Origin: Candidatus Poribacteria bacterium
GTDB lineage: Bacteria > Poribacteria > WGA-4E > PCPOR2b
Direction of reading: 5' to 3'
DNA length: 64,000 nucleotides
Assembly (NCBI GenBank): GCA_965215015.1
Contig: OZ244042.1
Coordinates: 2,048,001 to 2,112,000 of the forward strand
The translations under genes were made by a program, and so were the position numbers. Shown piece by piece: positions 57,616 to 64,000 of the stretch. The notes under the pieces are model-generated. The model did not search any database, was not told the origin of the DNA, and saw nothing but the letters and a program-made list of their open reading frames with translations. The number at the start of each line of letters is the position of its first letter. The stretch's first letter is position 1.

Positions 57616-59070
57616 ATGCCAAACCATTCATCAGCCATCGTGCAAAAACTGTGGAATTATTGTAATGTCCTTCGCGATGATGGGATCAGCTACGGCGACT
57701 ATGTGGAACAGTTGACCTATCTTCTATTTCTAAAAATGGCAGACGAGCAGGCCAAACTACCGTATAGAGATGAGTCCGTTGTGCCCGTGGGTCTAGACTG
57801 GGAAAGTCTCGTTGACAAGGAAGGCGATGCTCTTGAAAAGCACTACCGCCATATCCTCAATACACTGGCTCTGGAAAGTGGTACGCTCGGTGTAATTTTC
57901 AGAAAATCCCAAAACAAGATTCAAGATCCCGCCAAACTCAAGCGAATCATTCAACTGATCAACGATGAAACATGGATCGGGCTGGATATCGATGTGAAAG
58001 GGGATATCTACGAAGGTTTGCTGCAGAAAAACGCAGAAGATATCAAAAGCGGCGCGGGCCAATACTTCACGCCCCGCCCCCTGATCCAAGCAATTGTGGA
58101 GGTGATGAGGCCGGAACCGATGCAAACCATCTGCGATCCAGCGTGCGGCACCGGAGGCTTCTTCCTAGCAGCCTATGACTATCTAGCAAGCAGAAGCGAT
58201 CAGCTGGACAGGGAACAGAAACAGTTTCTCAAAGATAACACCTTTCACGGTGTGGACCTGGTGGACAGTGTAGTGAGGCTATGTGTGATGAATCTGTACC
58301 TTCACGGTATCGGTGGAGACAAAAGCCCTGTCCGAACAGGGGATAGCCTGATTTCGGATACGGGGCAACGCTTTGACATGGTGTTGACCAATCCGCCCTT
58401 CGGCAAGAAGAGTAGCATCACGATTGCGGACGAAAAAGGGAGAGCGGGAAAAAATTCACTTATCTATGAGCGGGAGGATTTTTGGGCGACTACCTCCAAC
58501 AAACAACTGAACTTCCTGCAGCATGTCAAAACAATTCTGAAAATCAATGGCAGGGCAGCGGTTGTCGTACCAGATAACGTCCTGTTTGAAGGAGGTGCGG
58601 GGGAGACCGTTCGCAAGAAGTTACTACACGAGTGCGATGTCCATACATTGCTCCGACTCCCGACCGGCATCTTTTATGCACAAGGCGTCAAGGCAAATGT
58701 CCTGTTCTTCGATCGCAGAACCGCAAGCGAAACCCCACGGACAGAGAAACTGTGGATTTACGACCTACGAACCAACCGGCGATTCACACTGAAAACGAAA
58801 CAGATGCACTACGACGACCTGCACGATTTCATCGCCTGCTACAATTCCGACAACCGCCATGATCGGAAAGAGACCGAACGGTTTAAGTCGTTTTCCTACG
58901 ATGAGCTGATGCAGCGAGACAAGGTCAGTCTTGATCGCCTCTGGTTGCGAGACGAAAGCCTTGAGGATACCGAGAATCTGCCGGAACCTGATGAATTGGC
59001 AGAGGATATCGCTGCGAATCTGATGGCAGCATCAGAGCAGTTTCAGGACATTTATGAGGGACTCGCTTAG
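57616..59070 (+). CDS. hsdM: Type I R-M N6-adenine methyltransferase
   Basis: KLWNYCNVLRDDG, GQYFTPR, DPACGTGGF, TNPPF, LRLPTGIF. Confidence 0.95.
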   Translation: MPNHSSAIVQKLWNYCNVLRDDGISYGDYVEQLTYLLFLKMADEQAKLPYRDESVVPVGLDWESLVDKEGDALEKHYRHILNTLALESGTLGVIFRKSQNKIQDPAKLKRIIQLINDETWIGLDIDVKGDIYEGLLQKNAEDIKSGAGQYFTPRPLIQAIVEVMRPEPMQTICDPACGTGGFFLAAYDYLASRSDQLDREQKQFLKDNTFHGVDLVDSVVRLCVMNLYLHGIGGDKSPVRTGDSLISDTGQRFDMVLTNPPFGKKSSITIADEKGRAGKNSLIYEREDFWATTSNKQLNFLQHVKTILKINGRAAVVVPDNVLFEGGAGETVRKKLLHECDVHTLLRLPTGIFYAQGVKANVLFFDRRTASETPRTEKLWIYDLRTNRRFTLKTKQMHYDDLHDFIACYNSDNRHDRKETERFKSFSYDELMQRDKVSLDRLWLRDESLEDTENLPEPDELAEDIAANLMAASEQFQDIYEGLA

Positions 59071-59434
59071 TAAACCTCTTCTCCAAGTGCCCCGAAGTAG
59101 GGAAAAATAATTGTTGCTCTCTAGGTTCTGTTGGCATTTCATTGCAACCAGATAATCGCAGGGTCTGCACAGACGCATGGCCCTCCGTAGGGGGTGGGTC
59201 CCCCAACCCTCGGTTTACACATCAGGGACAACCCCGGACCGCTGGTGGTCAATTTGCCAAAATCAAAAATACCGAGTACATTGCACTATAGTCTGGGTGT
59301 TTCTCAATGAGACCGGCGTGTAAGGCAACATATAGGGTATTTTCGGGGCATGAAGCCGCGCAATCCGCTTCATCAGTTTAATCCGTGATTCAGACAATTA
59401 TTATTAGCACCCCTCACATAAGTGTCAATATACC

Positions 59435-59998
59435 CTACCCGTTCAGGAAATTCTTCAACAGCTTTTTCCCTTCGCTGGTCAGGATCGACTCCGGATGGAA
59501 CTGCACCCCCCAGATCGGATAATCTTTATGCCGAACCCCCATAATTTCGTCTTGGTCCGTCCACGCAGTGAGTTCAAGGCAATCCGGCAGCGTCTCCTTT
59601 TTCACAATCAGAGAATGGTAGCGTGTCGCCTCAAACGGGTTTTCAAGGTCGTCGAAAATTTGCTCACCGTTGTGGTGAATCATTGACGTTTTGCCGTGCA
59701 TCAAGCGGCCCGCACGGACGATATCGCCGCCAAACACATCGCCGATACACTGATGCCCCAAGCAGACGCCGAGAAGGGGCACACGCCCGGCAAAATGACG
59801 GATCAGATCGCAGGAAATGCCTGCCTCCCGAGGTGTGCAGGGCCCCGGCGATATGACAATCTTCTCCGGCGGGAGGACGTCAATCTGGTCGAGCGTGATT
59901 TTATCATTGCGATGGACGACAAGGTCCGCACCTAACTCGCCGAGGTATTGCACGAGGTTGTAGGTAAATGAATCATAATTGTCAATCATCAATATCAT
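59435..59998 (-). CDS. trpG: Anthranilate/aminodeoxychorismate synthase component II
   Basis: [33 protein letters not shown]. Confidence 0.93.
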
Positions 59999-60009
59999 AG
60001 GTTTGTCTC

Positions 60010-60390
60010 CTAACCCTGCACCTTTCCCACCTCAAAATCCTCTAAAAACTTCCTCATGGTCTCAAGGCGGAAGCGCCCACAATGCGCTGGATCTAAAAAG
60101 AAATCCCAGACAAAATTGGCAGAGTTTTGTTTCACCTGAGAGATGAGGGTATCGTAATTCTCTTCAATTCTTTCCTCAATCTGCGCTTTTGAAAACGAAT
60201 AGATTGGGTCAATTGATAGCACCGTATTTCCCAGAGCATTCATTTCGCTGTTAAAACTAGCAGGTCCGTCACCAACGCCGAGTAGGCATAAGTTCAGTTC
60301 CGCATCAGAGAGATTGAACATCCGCTTATACTCTTGTAGCGATCTGCCCCAAGGGATGACTTGGTTAAGTGTCACACTCACGGTTTGCAC
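60010..60390 (-). pseudogene. 3'-truncated SAM-dependent methyltransferase-like gene
   Basis: PWGRS..EY..MF, G.GDGPASFN, DPIY; ends at 126 aa before the expected C-terminal half. Confidence 0.6.
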
Positions 60391-60402
60391 CCTATTGCCG
60401 AT

Positions 60403-61887
60403 TTATTCCAGGCCAGCCTCTGCGAGTTCAATTGCTCGTAACCCCGCCCGCGCCTTGTTGACCGTTTCCGCGTATTCCGTTTCGGGCACAGAGTCTGCGA
60501 CAATCCCGCCGCCCGCCTGGACGTAGGCAATCCCATCTTTGACGACGAGCGTGCGAATCGTAATCGCTGTATCTGCACTACCCGAGAAACTGAAGTAACC
60601 AACAGCTCCGCCATAAGGGCCCCGCCGTGTCGGCTCAAGTTCATCGATAATCTCCATCGCCCGGATCTTGGGGGCACCGGATAGCGTCCCGGCAGGCAAG
60701 CAAGCGCGAATCACATCAAAGGGGGTCTGCCCCTCGCGCAATTCTCCGACAACATGCGAGACGATGTGCATCACATGCGAGTAGCGTTCGACCACCATCA
60801 TCTCACTCACGCGCACAGTGTGGTATTCGCAGACGCGCCCCAAATCGTTGCGTCCAAGGTCAACGAGCATGACATGTTCAGCCCGCTCCTTTGGATCGGC
60901 GAGAAGTTCCATTGCCAACGCCTCATCTTCAGCCGGGGTTGCGCCACGCGGGCGGGTGCCTGCGATTGGACGCATCTCCGCAACACCGTCCTCAACGCGC
61001 ACCATCATTTCAGGCGAGGCACCAGCAATCTGGAGTTCATCAAACTTGAGGTAATACATATAAGGTGAAGGGTTCACCGTGCGCAACGCGCGATAAGCAT
61101 CGAATGTATCGACTGATAGCGGCACGGTAAAACGTTGAGACGGCACGACCTGAATGATGTCTCCCGCGGCGATATACTCCTTTGCCCGAAGGACAACCTG
61201 ATGGTAATCTTCCTTCGTAAAGTTTGACGTGACAGGCACATTGCTTGGACTTGCAAGAGGCTTATTAGTATAATTCGTCAACAATGGCTGTTTGAGTTTA
61301 GCCATGAGTCCGTCAATCTGATCAAGCGCGTGTTCGTAGGCTTGGTCAACATCACCGTTAATATAGGCATTGGCGACCACCTTGATCTGATGGTTCACAT
61401 GATCAAACACAAGAAGCGTATCGGTGACCATGAAAAAGCAATCGGGGAGTTCCCGATCATCTTCGGTAGTGTCAGGGAGGTCCTCGACGAAACGCACCAT
61501 GTCGTAGTTTAGGTAGCCGACTGCCCCACCGTGAAACCGCGGCAATCCCTCGACCTCAACGGGTTGGTAGCGACCCATCAATGCTTCAAGCTCCGCTAAC
61601 GGGTCCTCACTTTCCAATTCAACCGTACCCCCGGTTCGGAGGTCATCAATCTGGACCAGATTGTCCCTGCTCCTAAGTAGGATTGATGGGGCACTGCCGA
61701 GAAACGAATACCGGGCGACGTGTTCTCCTCCTTCAACGCTTTCCAGCAGGAATGCGTGATCACTGGCTCCAATCTTGTAAAACGCGGACACAGGCGTTTC
61801 CATATCCGCCAGAATCTGTTTATAAACAGGAACCAAGTTTCCGTGTCGCGCTTTTTCTCGAAAAGCCTCTAAGCTTGGGTAATACAT
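60403..61887 (-). CDS. trpE: Anthranilate synthase component I
   Basis: LLES, NPSPYMY, PIAGTR, KERAEH.MLVDL.RND, PAGTLSGAPK, QAGGGIVADS. Confidence 0.95.
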   Translation of the reverse strand: MYYPSLEAFREKARHGNLVPVYKQILADMETPVSAFYKIGASDHAFLLESVEGGEHVARYSFLGSAPSILLRSRDNLVQIDDLRTGGTVELESEDPLAELEALMGRYQPVEVEGLPRFHGGAVGYLNYDMVRFVEDLPDTTEDDRELPDCFFMVTDTLLVFDHVNHQIKVVANAYINGDVDQAYEHALDQIDGLMAKLKQPLLTNYTNKPLASPSNVPVTSNFTKEDYHQVVLRAKEYIAAGDIIQVVPSQRFTVPLSVDTFDAYRALRTVNPSPYMYYLKFDELQIAGASPEMMVRVEDGVAEMRPIAGTRPRGATPAEDEALAMELLADPKERAEHVMLVDLGRNDLGRVCEYHTVRVSEMMVVERYSHVMHIVSHVVGELREGQTPFDVIRACLPAGTLSGAPKIRAMEIIDELEPTRRGPYGGAVGYFSFSGSADTAITIRTLVVKDGIAYVQAGGGIVADSVPETEYAETVNKARAGLRAIELAEAGLE

Positions 61888-61907
61888 GGAAGTCTCCTTA
61901 AAATCTA

Positions 61908-62288
61908 TCAGTACACTGCATCCGGATCAAAAACCTTTTCACCAACAATACGGGTAGAGTTACCATCGGGGGAGACTTCCCGAAAGAAACAGGAGCGGTA
62001 GCCGACGTGGCACGCCCCACCTTTCTGTTCGACTTTGATGAGCAGCGCATCACCATCACAATCAAAGGCGACCGTTCGCACCGTTTGCGTGTGCCCTGAA
62101 GTCTCCCCCTTGATCCAGTATTCCTGGCGGGAGCGGCTCCAGAAGCAGACACGCCCTGATTCTAATGTTCTCCGCACTGCCTCGCGGTTCATATAGCCGA
62201 CCATGAGAACCTCGTTGTTCCGGTCATCCTGTATAATGGCTGGGATTAAGCCGTTCTGGTCGGTTTTGAGTTGATTTAGAATTTCCAT
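61908..62288 (-). CDS. hisI: Phosphoribosyl-AMP cyclohydrolase
   Basis: [26 protein letters not shown]. Confidence 0.96.
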
Positions 62289-62319
62289 TTTTTTTCCTCG
62301 TTTGGCAGAAAATAGACAT

Positions 62320-62360
62320 AAAAAAAGCCGTAGACAACGGGGGGCGTATGCCTACGGCTT
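62320..62360 (-). terminator. Attenuator terminator
   Basis: AAGCCGTAGGCA / TGTCTACGGCTT stem then further Ts, ~30 nt before the hisI start. Confidence 0.85.
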
Positions 62361-62386
62361 CAGTTTCTAGATATGAGTCCAAAGGT

Positions 62387-62485
62387 TCATCTCAGCAAAG
62401 GCACACCACTTCCCTCAACACACCACCACCAATGCCAATGATGAAATACGATTTGAAATTGTGGTTGTCGGTTCAGAGTTTGCAT
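62387..62485 (-). CDS. His/Trp-rich leader peptide MQTLNRQPQFQIVFHHWHWWWCVEGSGVPLLR
   Basis: GAAAGGT RBS; CAT CAT TGG CAT TGG TGG TGG; lies between promoter and terminator. Confidence 0.88.
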   Translation of the reverse strand: MQTLNRQPQFQIVFHHWHWWWCVEGSGVPLLR

Positions 62486-62521
62486 AGTACCTTTCAACTG
62501 CTTCTTTGTCAGATTGCTTAA

Positions 62522-62551
62522 AGCATATCATAATTCCAGTTTCTGTGTCAA
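62522..62551 (-). promoter_or_regulatory. Promoter of the leader-hisI-trp operon
   Basis: TTGACA-N18-TATGCT with TG extension. Confidence 0.65.
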
Positions 62552-62572
62552 GAAAATTCCGATGCAGTGTTC

Positions 62573-63385
62573 TCACCTAACTAACGGCTTCAAAAACTCG
62601 ATGCTTTGACGCGCAATTGTCTCTGGATCCGGTTCAAAATTGAAGACTTCGGTTGAAAGATAACCGGTGTAATTAATCTCCTTCAATGCCTCGATAATTG
62701 GTGGATAATCCACATTACCGGAACCGGGGAGATAGCCATTATCGTCGTTGGTGTGAAAATGTGCCACGTGTTTGGCGTATTTGCGGATCTGCGTGGGCAT
62801 GTCCAAATTTTCGGCGGCTGTACTCGTCACGTCAAGAATTATCTGAAAATTCGGGTTATCGACCGCTTTGACCATTTCTACCGCTGCCGCCGGTGTGTTG
62901 ATGAAATTTGTGCTTTGACTTGTCAATGGTTCCATGCACAAGATAACATCCTGTTCTTGAGCAGATTCGGCGCACGCCGCGAAGGTTTCCTGCGCATAAC
63001 GCCACGCCTGCTCCTGTGTCAATGGATCCAGTATGTTCCGTTCATTGGGTGAACCGATAACCATAATCTTCCCACCCAGATCGGCACAACACGAGATCAG
63101 CGCAAAAAAATAATCTCGTGTTTGCTCGCGAATGGCTCCATCAGGGTGATTAACGTGCAACCCCTTTGGCGAGACCAACAGCCAGTGAAGACCAGCGATT
63201 TCGATTTTTGCTGCCTCCGCTGCTTTTCGGATCCGATCTCTTTCGGTTTGATTGATGTCTAACACCGACTCTGCGAGCGTGAAAGGTGCAAGCTCCACCG
63301 CATCGTAGCCGAGTTTGGCAGCACACAGAAAGACATCTTCAATCTGCCAATCCTCAAACATTTCGTTGCAGATAGCTAGTTTCAT
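62573..63385 (-). CDS. Sugar phosphate isomerase/epimerase (AP endonuclease 2 TIM barrel)
   Basis: GYDAVE, MEPL, LDV, HFH.ND, PGSG.VD, S.EVF; AGGAG RBS. Confidence 0.85.
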   Translation of the reverse strand: MKLAICNEMFEDWQIEDVFLCAAKLGYDAVELAPFTLAESVLDINQTERDRIRKAAEAAKIEIAGLHWLLVSPKGLHVNHPDGAIREQTRDYFFALISCCADLGGKIMVIGSPNERNILDPLTQEQAWRYAQETFAACAESAQEQDVILCMEPLTSQSTNFINTPAAAVEMVKAVDNPNFQIILDVTSTAAENLDMPTQIRKYAKHVAHFHTNDDNGYLPGSGNVDYPPIIEALKEINYTGYLSTEVFNFEPDPETIARQSIEFLKPLVR

Positions 63386-63408
63386 GATCAACTCCTGATT
63401 CCGTTGAA

Positions 63409-64000
63409 TTAAAGACCTTCTTGCCACCGTTGGATGAGATTTGCATCAATGTCAAACTGATCCAGTACCTTCGTGACGACGAAATTAATCATATCATCAA
63501 CCGTTTTGGGGAAGTGGTAAAAGCCCGGCATCGCAGGAAGCACCACCGCACCGAGTTGGGACAACTTGAGCATATTCTCGAGATGGATGGCACTCAGCGG
63601 CGTCTCACGGGGCACGAGGACCAATTTACGCCGCTCCTTGATGCAGACATCGGCAGCGCGATGGATGAGGTTTCGGGAAATGCCTGCGGCTATTGCGCCG
63701 ATAGTCCCCATGCTGCATGGCGCAACGACCATACCCACAGTGCGGAAGGAGCCGCTGGCAATTGAGGCCCCGATGTCGGACTGATGGTGATAAATCACCC
63801 GATCTGAAGAATAGCCAATTAAGGATTCAAGGCAGAAATTGCCCAGATCCACACAAATCTGCAGCTCTTCCCACAACGCCCTTGCGCCGGAGTCGGAAAT
63901 CGTCAAATGAATTTCAGTGCCATCACATCGGGTGAGGATCTCCAGCAGACGCACACCGTAGATAACGGCACTCGCTCCTGTTATTCCGAGAATTATACGT
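63409..64000 (-). CDS. ubiX: Flavin prenyltransferase UbiX (5' end beyond window)
   Basis: GITGAS..IYG, IASGS, PCSMGT, RAADV..KE.R, RETPL, PAMPGFY. Confidence 0.95.
   Translation of the reverse strand, partial: RIILGITGASAVIYGVRLLEILTRCDGTEIHLTISDSGARALWEELQICVDLGNFCLESLIGYSSDRVIYHHQSDIGASIASGSFRTVGMVVAPCSMGTIGAIAAGISRNLIHRAADVCIKERRKLVLVPRETPLSAIHLENMLKLSQLGAVVLPAMPGFYHFPKTVDDMINFVVTKVLDQFDIDANLIQRWQEGL

Follow-up and report, generated by a model that had tools for sequence, protein, structure and literature searches.

A candidate leader-peptide attenuator with interleaved histidine and tryptophan codons upstream of hisI-trpE-trpG in Candidatus Poribacteria

Leader-peptide attenuators are textbook sensors of a single pathway. 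The hisL leader of enterobacteria, with its long unbroken series of His codons, governs the complete his operon. The known multivalent leaders join amino acids of one connected pathway, as is the case for thrL, ilvL and ivbL. In attenuation, the ribosome stalls at any control-region codon for which charged tRNA is scarce. A genetic link between histidine and aromatic amino acid synthesis is known from the aromatic supraoperon of Bacillus subtilis, in which hisC, coding for the histidine-pathway aminotransferase, is located downstream of trp genes. There, the trp genes are controlled by the TRAP protein and not by a leader peptide, and the link to hisC is explained by the dual use of the enzyme. 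A search of full-text literature, which covered neither subscription journals nor supplementary files, retrieved no published leader combining His and Trp codons, in agreement with the initial annotation of the DNA studied here, whose author knew of none.

The locus lies in a window of 64,000 nucleotides from a Candidatus Poribacteria bacterium (GCA_965215015.1, contig OZ244042.1, positions 2,048,001-2,112,000). On the minus strand, a short ORF with seven adjacent His and Trp codons precedes hisI-trpE-(small ORF)-trpG. Judged from sequence comparisons, the element is very probably a classical ribosome-mediated transcription attenuator of this operon and, as the mechanism is that of classical attenuation, it is not categorically new. 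The more specific reading, that the attenuator responds to both Trp and His and would be relieved by shortage of either, has in our estimate a probability of about two in three.

Anatomy of the leader and its operon

The initial annotation had proposed a promoter (TTGACA-N18-TATGCT), a ribosome binding site, a 32-codon ORF with seven consecutive His/Trp codons and a GC stem plus T tract before hisI, and all of these parts were located (Table 1). As expected of a leader-peptide attenuator, an ORF with its own ribosome binding site and start codon lies between the promoter and the first structural gene, its codon cluster specifies the amino acids to which the downstream genes belong, and an intrinsic terminator separates it from hisI. 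In the ORF list, the leader ORF is contained in a 36-aa ORF with a TTG start (62387..62497).

Table 1. Features of the hisI-trpE leader and operon (positions in the window)
Feature	Position	Strand	Description and basis
Promoter-like site, sigma-70 type	62522..62551	-	-35 TTGACA 62551-62546, 18-nt spacer with TG, -10 TATGCT 62527-62522; 10/12 consensus matches
Shine-Dalgarno sequence	62490..62495	-	GAAAGG, 4 nt before leader ATG; sequence
Leader ORF	62387..62485	-	32 sense codons + TGA, peptide MQTLNRQPQFQIVFHHWHWWWCVEGSGVPLLR; ATG 62485-62483, TGA 62389-62387
Control codons 15-21	62423..62443	-	CAT CAT TGG CAT TGG TGG TGG (His His Trp His Trp Trp Trp); proposed stall site and part of region 1; sequence
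Region 2, 5′ strand of antiterminator	62399..62414	-	GGGAAGTGGTGTGCCT; within leader codons 24-29; fold
Region 2, conserved core	62406-62399	-	GTGTGCCT; pairs kept across families
Region 3, terminator 5′ arm	62340..62361	-	includes AGGCATAC (62353-62346), alternative partner of region 2; folds and alignment
Region 4, terminator 3′ arm + T7 tract	62320..62339	-	T7 62326-62320; fold and covariation
Terminator	62320..62361	-	hairpin 62361-62324 + T7 62326-62320; dG -21.8 kcal/mol, z -6.34
hisI	61908..62288	-	phosphoribosyl-AMP cyclohydrolase, 126 aa, first structural gene; Pfam PF01502, E 4.4e-36
trpE	60403..61887	-	anthranilate synthase component I, 494 aa; Pfam PF00425, E 4.6e-96, PF04715, E 1e-39
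Small ORF between trpE and trpG	60010..60390	-	126 aa, function unassigned; without Pfam match
trpG	59435..59998	-	glutamine amidotransferase component of anthranilate synthase, 187 aa, last gene of the operon; Pfam PF00117, E 2.8e-62

Taken alone, the promoter-like site is weak, as a scan of 5 kb returned 9 such sites versus 5.3 ± 2.7 in shuffled sequences. Relatives from several families have TTGACA and an extended -10 element at the equivalent position, in the interval separating the leader from the upstream gene. Transcription from this site would begin about 30 nt 5′ of the leader ORF. The gene upstream of the leader is sugar-isomerase-like.

None of 200 shuffled sequences was as stable as the terminator. 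A simple terminator scan of the 5-kb region did not list it, presumably because its stem carries a bulge. The proposed pairing between the end of the leader ORF and the terminator 5′ arm was recovered as well, since GTGTGCCT and AGGCATAC form seven Watson-Crick pairs and one G-U pair. When alternative structures were folded, as the initial annotation had suggested, leaving out the terminator 3′ arm lengthened the pairing of regions 2 and 3 to 13 pairs. In the window, the 2:3 duplex amounts to -14.7 kcal/mol. The fold energies of the antiterminator (z -0.47) and of the whole leader (z -1.64) are both unexceptional and not significant when compared with shuffles. We therefore argue for the switch from position and covariation, not from energy.

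The mixed his/trp operon predicted downstream was borne out by Pfam matches. The hisI gene is the only one of about nine histidine genes in the operon and, giving a single match in the whole genome, the only hisI of this bacterium. The trpE gene starts 20 nt past its stop codon. The small ORF corresponds to the N-terminal half of a longer ORF (228 aa) at the equivalent position in a relative (L073), with 63% identity over 123 aa. The remaining trp and his genes are scattered in the genome, with hisG, hisD and a candidate hisE located elsewhere and without leaders. No leader-like ORF was seen upstream of trpC, hisG, trpB/A, hisD or trpD, and none of the eight runs of at least four His codons in short ORFs genome-wide lies in a his context. 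The attenuator motifs occur once in the 5.94-Mb genome. Short ORFs with an upstream ATG and at least five consecutive His/Trp codons number only two genome-wide; the second, at genome position 4487787, is located in an unrelated region without his or trp context and was discarded. A cmscan search of positions 59000-64000 against 4227 Rfam families (E up to 10) returned three unrelated matches at chance level, none above the gathering score, which places the element outside the leader families of Rfam, among them the Trp leader and the His leader.

Contigs from RNA libraries of sponge metatranscriptomes cover the leader, and two of them (records 1 and 20) extend from the leader through the terminator as far as hisI. 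As they are 85-99% alike to the window, they were assigned to near relatives. They provide weak support for expression of the element. The shares of sampled words in these runs are small (0.04-0.09), and neither coverage gaps nor depths of the contigs were counted as evidence.

Conservation and covariation across the phylum

To describe the distribution of the element, we refer to 71 hisI-first loci with a close hisI (identity of at least 60%). A hisI was detected in 171 genomes of the phylum. In 70 of them trpE lies directly downstream of hisI, and the remaining locus ends at a contig end. A leader ORF with terminator is present at 64 of the 71 loci, representing 21 of the 24 sampled genera and nine families. 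The initial annotation had made its idea depend on conserved His/Trp codons at orthologous loci, and it withstood this comparison because such a leader is conserved upstream of orthologous hisI-trpE. According to these sequence data, the element is conserved across the whole, mostly uncultured phylum. Leaders were called by a hairpin-based finder; those of L167, L195 and L196 were identified by eye, as were longer starts in L029, L030, L152 and L180, and L001, which occupies the same place as L002, is left out of the counts. No leader was seen upstream of hisI-trpE in genera g12, g15 and g20, and genera g16, g23, g26 and g30 lie outside the sample. A scan of the sequence collection for the codon pattern HHWHWW says little about other phyla because, among the at least 120 matching stretches listed, 117 were chance matches in unrelated frames and three were true leaders.

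At least two His and at least two Trp codons are found in 59 of the 64 leaders. In hisI-first leaders, three to five His codons are usual. The positions of the His codons move between families yet stay beside Trp (HHWHWWW, NHWHWWR, GHDWHWWH, NHWHWWHH, WRHWHW, GHWHWGW, HHHWCWWH), and both CAT and CAC are in use. Exceptions among the hisI-first genera are g8 with no His and one Trp codon and g19 with one His and four Trp codons. The control codons are the least variable part of the leader ORF. Among 24 leaders of families f1 and f3, counted without L014 (in-frame insertion) and without L026 and L028 (Trp cluster starting at another codon), five alternative codons occur over six control codons versus 39 over codons 2-14. 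Variable sites number 12, 10 and 11 at codon positions 1, 2 and 3, and as there is no excess at the third position, the idea of selection on the N-terminal part of the leader peptide was dropped.

Stem covariation, another check named at the outset, was examined in an alignment (A1) of 51 of roughly 68 leaders, from which near-identical rows of genus g1 were left out. In the terminator, 87.7% of the cells are paired versus 79.1 ± 0.7% in shuffles, a value reached by none of 500, and both sides change in 9 of 16 pairs (slid controls 30-52%). Alignment column 217 holds G in one group of leaders and U in another. Its terminator partner changes from C to A (GC 31, UA 15) and its antiterminator partner from C to G (CG 33, GU 16). 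In this alignment, changes at a single switch base are accompanied by changes in its partner in either structure. Taken as a whole, the antiterminator is only weakly distinguished, being 65.1% paired versus 61.3% in shuffles and 58-62% when slid by two columns; the slid controls score high owing to the GU-repeat nature of the strand. The mutually exclusive antiterminator built from the terminator 5′ arm retains a core of six to eight pairs in all families, and its outer pairs are not conserved between families.

In 60 of 65 leaders, counted without L191 (wrong ORF) and L196 (broken frame), the strongest upstream partner of the terminator 5′ arm, i.e. region 2, falls within the last approximately eight leader codons, and it starts at a median of 19 nt past the last Trp codon. 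Given the generally known size of the ribosome footprint, region 2 at this place would be masked by a ribosome at the stop codon and free when the ribosome resides at the control codons. At the sequence level, the positional logic of the initial annotation holds.

Histidine codons and the proposed mode of action

According to the proposed mechanism, plentiful charged tRNA-Trp and tRNA-His would allow the leading ribosome to reach the stop codon and to cover region 2. Regions 3 and 4 would then form the terminator, and transcription would stop in the T tract without reaching hisI. With too little of either charged tRNA, the ribosome would stall at the control codons and cover region 1, leaving region 2 free 9-17 nt or more downstream. 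Pairing of region 2 with region 3 would preclude the terminator, and RNA polymerase would continue into hisI, trpE and trpG. Since stalling could take place at either His or Trp codons, the leader would act as an OR gate for two amino acids, which would match an operon that combines a single histidine gene with the first step of the tryptophan pathway.

Comparative support for such an OR gate comes from four related leaders in which trpE directly follows a homologous attenuator without hisI. They contain 0, 1, 1 and 0 His codons and 4, 2, 2 and 4 Trp codons, a comparison that comprises two lineages only, namely genus g9 (three leaders) and family f11. In g9, one His codon is left in two of the three leaders, one of which has a broken frame. 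In the leaders compared, the occurrence of His codons is associated with that of hisI downstream.

Several of the His codons are also engaged in pairing with region 2, so that their conservation may in part be structural. In nearly all 51 aligned leaders, GGCAT (TGG-CAT, with the central His of W-H-W) pairs with GTGCC of region 2, and families f1 and f3 have additional outer pairs, formed by the two CAT codons further upstream with TTGCTGAG at the leader's end. Among 65 leaders, again counted without L191 and L196, the upstream sequence that pairs best with region 2 coincides with the His/Trp codons in 31 cases and lies close to the Shine-Dalgarno sequence in 12. For the leader in the window it is the Shine-Dalgarno region (-12.8 kcal/mol), and GAAAGG also pairs with region 2 in a fold of the untranslated 5′ part. 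These pairings suit an ordinary Trp attenuator, in which selection for sensing acts on the Trp codons only, the His codons persist owing to the 1:2 pairing or to common descent and a histidine response is a physiologically unimportant side effect. The same explanation would account for the trpE-first leader of G027, where a Tyr codon (TAT) stands in place of CAT and keeps the pairing by wobble, for the greater constancy of the Trp codons, of which codons 17 and 19 are invariant in the 24 leaders of f1 and f3, and for an operon that holds so small a part of the histidine genes. It is harder to reconcile with His codons that also occur outside the conserved pairing, at positions shifting by family (WWH, WWHH, HHHW, WRHW), and with family f2, which keeps N/D-H-W-H-W-W despite a different region 2 and the loss of the outer 1:2 pairs. 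Moreover, His codons are few (0-1) exactly where the operon is devoid of hisI. As any poorly charged control codon stalls the ribosome, three or four His codons should relieve termination under histidine starvation, whatever keeps them. We therefore regard a sensor selected for Trp alone as somewhat unlikely, albeit a serious alternative.

Two further explanations concern the element as a whole. The main product might be a small RNA acting in trans or a small peptide with a function of its own, with control of the downstream operon being secondary. As a precedent, such roles are reported for the RNA and the peptide derived from the trpL attenuator in Sinorhizobium meliloti (PMC6614838, PMC7298713). 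In the Poribacteria, the whole leader sequence is strongly conserved inside families, and in three metatranscriptome runs the leader contigs have a higher word depth than the hisI contigs, although depths cannot rank parts of a gene. The peptide outside the His/Trp codons, however, is not conserved between families, its substitutions show the even spread over codon positions given above, and the element always lies directly upstream of hisI-trpE or trpE, once per genome. A role in trans would in any case supplement attenuation in cis and not replace it. We regard this proposal as highly improbable as an account of the main function. Still less credence is due to a chance ORF beside the ordinary terminator of the upstream gene without any switch. 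The unexceptional antiterminator and whole-leader folds and the slight excess of promoter-like sites over chance would be in line with it. It is already contradicted by the comparative data, in which ORF, stop position, codon content and terminator are kept in 64 of the 71 loci, at hisI identities as low as 60%, the terminator covaries, a conserved promoter separates the leader from the upstream gene and the element occurs once in the genome.

As to the origin of the two-amino-acid attenuator, we are evenly divided on whether it is a selected two-input OR gate whose codon content tracks operon content. On this view, a Trp-only attenuator of trpE would have acquired its His codons upon insertion of hisI between terminator and trpE; the Trp-only form would survive in f11, and the His codons would have decayed in g9 after hisI had left. 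The His codons would also supply GGCAT of region 1, one triplet serving both as sensor codon and as part of a structural pairing. Against a response to both amino acids speaks that each of them accounts for only three to four of the seven control codons, which according to modelling lowers sensitivity in comparison to a pure run (PMC1183508).

If this scenario is true, changing a few codons would suffice for a leader-peptide device to take on two separate pathways once a foreign gene has entered its operon. The series of Trp-only leaders before trpE, His/Trp leaders before hisI-trpE and decayed His codons after hisI loss would then represent re-coding and its reversal in nature. The element would mark hisI and anthranilate synthase as controlled steps in this phylum, which is known almost only from sponge metagenomes and for which it is the first candidate cis-regulatory RNA that we came across.

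Comparison with known attenuators

The closest relatives in design are E. coli trpL and the S. meliloti trpL-trpE(G) system, which share with the poribacterial element a short translated leader with tandem Trp codons. Like trpL, the element has the alternative pairings 2:3 and 3:4, next to a putative 1:2 pairing, and an intrinsic terminator, and region 2 falls in the last part of the leader ORF. It differs in that its three or four Trp codons are interspersed with three or four His codons, in that the first structural gene is hisI and not trpE, and in that neither sequence nor structure matches any Rfam family, the Trp leader included. As is reported for S. meliloti, the leader resides on the anthranilate synthase operon only and the remaining trp genes are located elsewhere (PMC6614838).

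With enterobacterial hisL, the element has in common His control codons in a leader ORF upstream of a histidine gene and the alternative of terminator and antiterminator. In contrast to hisL, its three or four His codons are mixed with Trp codons, and hisI would be the sole his gene under control. In carrying control codons for several amino acids in one leader ORF, so that limitation of any of them would relieve termination, it resembles thrL (Thr and Ile) as well as ilvL and ivbL (Ile, Leu and Val). Here, however, the His and Trp pathways are separate and share only the precursor PRPP, and the mixed codons match a mixed operon. Co-transcription of a his gene with trp genes, linking histidine and aromatic synthesis by operon, is reminiscent of the B. 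subtilis supraoperon; unlike this TRAP-controlled system, the poribacterial element is very probably of the leader-peptide type.

Anatomy and proposed operation of the hisI-trpE leader

The region upstream of hisI very probably functions as a classical ribosome-mediated attenuator (probability about 0.93, judged from sequence), and the geometry of its elements is that of the classical attenuation model. The promoter-like site, ribosome-binding site, ORF and terminator described in the initial annotation were all recovered from the sequence. Leader codons 15-21 read CAT CAT TGG CAT TGG TGG TGG, and the leader is followed by a hairpin that has the strength of an intrinsic terminator (−21.8 kcal/mol, z −6.34; none of 200 shuffles equally stable). 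Once the terminator 3′ arm (region 4) is omitted from the fold, the 5′ arm (region 3) pairs with GGGAAGTGGTGTGCCT (region 2), and the pairing GTGTGCCT/AGGCATAC proposed in the initial annotation is the core of this helix. A ribosome at the stop codon would cover the core of region 2, leaving regions 3 and 4 to terminate transcription. With any of codons 15-21 in the A site, a ribosome would extend no further than the initial bases of region 2 (62414); if it stalled there, regions 2 and 3 would pair and polymerase would read on.

Features of the operon and its leader region
Feature	Position	Strand	Basis
Sugar-phosphate-isomerase-like gene	62573-63427	minus	Pfam AP_endonuc_2
Intergenic region, 285 nt	between sugar-phosphate-isomerase-like gene and hisI	minus	sequence and Pfam
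Promoter-like TTGACA-N18-TATGCT, TG before −10	62551-62522	minus	promoter scan
Ribosome-binding site GAAAGG	62495-62490	minus	sequence
Leader ORF, ATG start, 32 codons, peptide MQTLNRQPQFQIVFHHWHWWWCVEGSGVPLLR	62485-62387	minus	sequence
Region 2, GGGAAGTGGTGTGCCT	62414-62399 (leader codons 24-29; core 62406-62399)	minus	fold
Leader stop codon	62389-62387	minus	sequence
Terminator hairpin, then seven T	62361-62324; T tract 62326-62320	minus	fold
Second ribosome-binding site, then hisI	hisI start 62288	minus	sequence
hisI	start 62288	minus	PF01502, E 4.4e-36
trpE	20 nt after hisI	minus	PF00425 and PF04715
ORF, 126 aa	60010-60390, between trpE and trpG	minus	no Pfam match
trpG	last gene of operon	minus	PF00117
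Type I restriction-modification methylase gene HsdM	57616-59070	plus	N6_Mtase and HsdM_N domains

As the methylase gene on the opposite strand converges on the end of trpG, the operon ends after trpG. The genome holds a single hisI. The genes trpD, trpC, trpA, hisG and hisD, together with a weak PRA-PH match, lie at dispersed chromosomal sites, and inspection of their upstream regions found no leader-like ORF; the attenuator would thus control a single histidine step plus the first enzyme of tryptophan synthesis, and no other gene of the two pathways. A related locus (L073) has a 228-aa ORF in the corresponding position, and the 126-aa ORF is 63% identical to its N-terminal half over 123 aa; in other relatives (L097) trpE directly adjoins trpG. 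By this comparison the 126-aa ORF seems to be a passenger gene of the operon in truncated form. Outside the window (genome G000, 182456-183320), the region in front of the hisD cluster is filled by an array of repeats of approx. 100 nt, all of which contain a conserved palindrome; further intergenic regions of this genome are likewise repeat-rich.

Across the 5.94-Mb genome, runs of at least five consecutive His/Trp codons are present in just two short ORFs that have an ATG upstream, and no relevant gene context was found around the second. The genome contains a single copy of the terminator and region 2 motifs. Among the at least 120 codon-pattern stretches listed in a collection scan, three are true leaders upstream of hisI-trpE-trpG. 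DNA and RNA runs containing the stretch or its relatives carry sponge or marine metagenome labels. Four metatranscriptome runs from four studies yielded contigs covering hisI and the leader, which at 85-99% likeness to the stretch come from relatives; two of them (records 1 and 20) span the leader, the terminator and hisI. In three runs leader contigs exceeded hisI contigs in word depth, a measure that cannot rank gene parts. RNA libraries can contain DNA, and the contigs are weak evidence, compatible with an attenuator.

Conservation across the phylum

A hisI match is present in 171 of 176 species genomes of the phylum. In the 76 hisI loci sampled, 71 carry a hisI that shares 60% or more identity with that of the window, directly followed by trpE in 70 and interrupted by a contig end in the remaining one; the other five have a divergent hisI (41-48% identity) away from trpE. 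Of the 71, 64 have a leader ORF and then a terminator ahead of hisI; they cover 21 of 24 sampled genera and families f1-f9. No leader was found in seven loci from genera g15 (three), g20 (two, one with merely 59 nt of upstream sequence), g12 (one) and g11 (one, lacking an ATG-started frame). At least two His plus at least two Trp codons occur in 59 of the 64 leaders, the exceptions being g8 (no His, one Trp), g19 (one His, four Trp), g11 and two g25 loci (three His, one Trp each). Outside the His/Trp cluster the peptides diverge between families. The interleaving is kept at shifting positions (SHHWHWWW, NHWHWWR, GHDWHWWH, NHWHWWHH, HRWHWW, WRHWHW, GHWHWGW, HHHWCWWH), and 24 leaders of families f1 and f3 show five alternative codons over the six codons 15-20 compared with 39 over codons 2-14.

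In an alignment of 51 leaders (A1), 87.7% of terminator cells are paired versus 79.1 ± 0.7 in column shuffles, a value reached by none of 500; slid controls gave 30-52%. Both sides vary in nine of 16 terminator pairs; at two positions, for instance, 14-16 sequences have U-A in place of G-C. Six to seven inner antiterminator pairs are general, the outer ones are confined to close kin of the window, and the whole helix stands only weakly apart from controls (65.1% vs 61.3%; 58-62% when slid by two columns, a high value explained by the GU repeat of this strand). Column 217 in the terminator arm is more telling than this whole-helix score. One group has G here and another has U; the terminator partner shifts from C to A and the antiterminator partner from C to G. 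A switch would predict a base of this kind, which preserves its pairing with both alternative partners. Independently of any alignment, the strongest upstream partner of the terminator arm lies within the last approx. eight leader codons in 60 of 65 leaders, kin sequences and thus non-independent counts that span 21 genera, and begins a median of 19 nt past the final Trp codon. Taken as a whole, the comparative evidence supports the attenuator interpretation of the initial annotation.

Several loci deviate in detail. Approx. 185 nt upstream of hisI, L004 (genome G005) has the 3′ half of the leader, its terminator and the opening codons of hisI duplicated in tandem. As a result two attenuator terminators follow one another, and an additional short frame begins at the hisI start codons and continues into a His/Trp cluster. 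The leader of L014 (G009) has its cluster divided (HHW...WH) by an in-frame insertion of approx. 30 nt with a small palindrome, leaving frame, region 2 and terminator intact. In ten loci (L006, L019, L020, L021, L025, L179, L183, L184, L186, L116) the terminator-hisI spacer measures 80-310 nt instead of the usual approx. 30 nt and holds palindromic repeat-like insertions, some common to several species; the spacer seems to tolerate small mobile repeats. The G016 bin contains two hisI-trpE loci, one g1-like and one g5-like (L022 on contig C354, L152 on C457), with their own leader types, which points to a mixed bin and not to a genuine duplication.

Histidine as a probable second signal

In attenuation, any control-region codon with an uncharged tRNA stalls the ribosome. 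With three to four His codons among the Trp codons a response to histidine should therefore follow, whatever maintains these codons. The operon starts with the only hisI of the genome, the His codons lie inside the stall window and not beside it, and they persist over deep divergence with positional turnover. Where the operon hisI is absent, a comparison comprising two lineages, His codons are few: in genus g9 trpE follows a homologous attenuator after approx. 50 nt, and its three leaders contain zero, one and one His codons, one frame being broken; family f11 belongs to another class, and its leader ahead of trpE has the sequence NWCWWW, without His. No leader was found in a fifth genome with trpE first (f10). 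Other genera of f4, the family of g9, retain hisI-trpE, and from these taxonomy labels we infer a secondary loss of hisI in g9. A second, divergent hisI (41-48% identity) away from trpE occurs in G033 (L162), G027, G030, G069, G041 and G043; G033 has both types. That g9 has the divergent type only fits replacement of the operon copy.

The leader might instead sense tryptophan only, its His codons serving structure. Almost every leader can pair the GGCAT of its TGG-CAT codons with GTGCC in region 2, and in f1 and f3 the two CAT codons ahead of these pair with the final codons of the leader, so structure could hold these codons; in G027 TAT replaces CAT and wobble keeps the pairing. Region 1, the upstream partner of region 2, is less sharply defined than the other regions: among 65 leaders the best partner falls on the His/Trp codons in 31, with the His-His-Trp-His codons serving in most f1/f3 relatives (−13.2 kcal/mol), and near the Shine-Dalgarno sequence in 12, as in the window RNA; in many f2 leaders it is codons 5-8. 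Each amino acid is served by only three to four of seven control codons, which counts against histidine sensing: in the model of Elf and Ehrenberg such an arrangement has lower sensitivity (PMC1183508). We nevertheless regard a purely tryptophan-responsive leader as unlikely, and dual responsiveness to histidine and tryptophan as reasonably probable.

Relation to known attenuators

The leaders trpL and hisL and the multivalent thr and ilv leaders are attenuators of the same working, and by analogy the poribacterial element would operate like them. Unlike them, it mixes codons of two separate pathways and controls a mixed operon. It also differs in lacking an Rfam model, no family matching even at E up to 10. 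The openly searchable full-text literature yielded no account of a leader combining His and Trp, nor of any attenuator from this phylum; an earlier mention in older comparative papers of subscription journals or in supplements is possible. As in S. meliloti, where the leader is reportedly placed only before anthranilate synthase (PMC6614838), the leader is found only before this enzyme. The mechanism itself is classical and hence known, and the combination of His and Trp is a variant of it.
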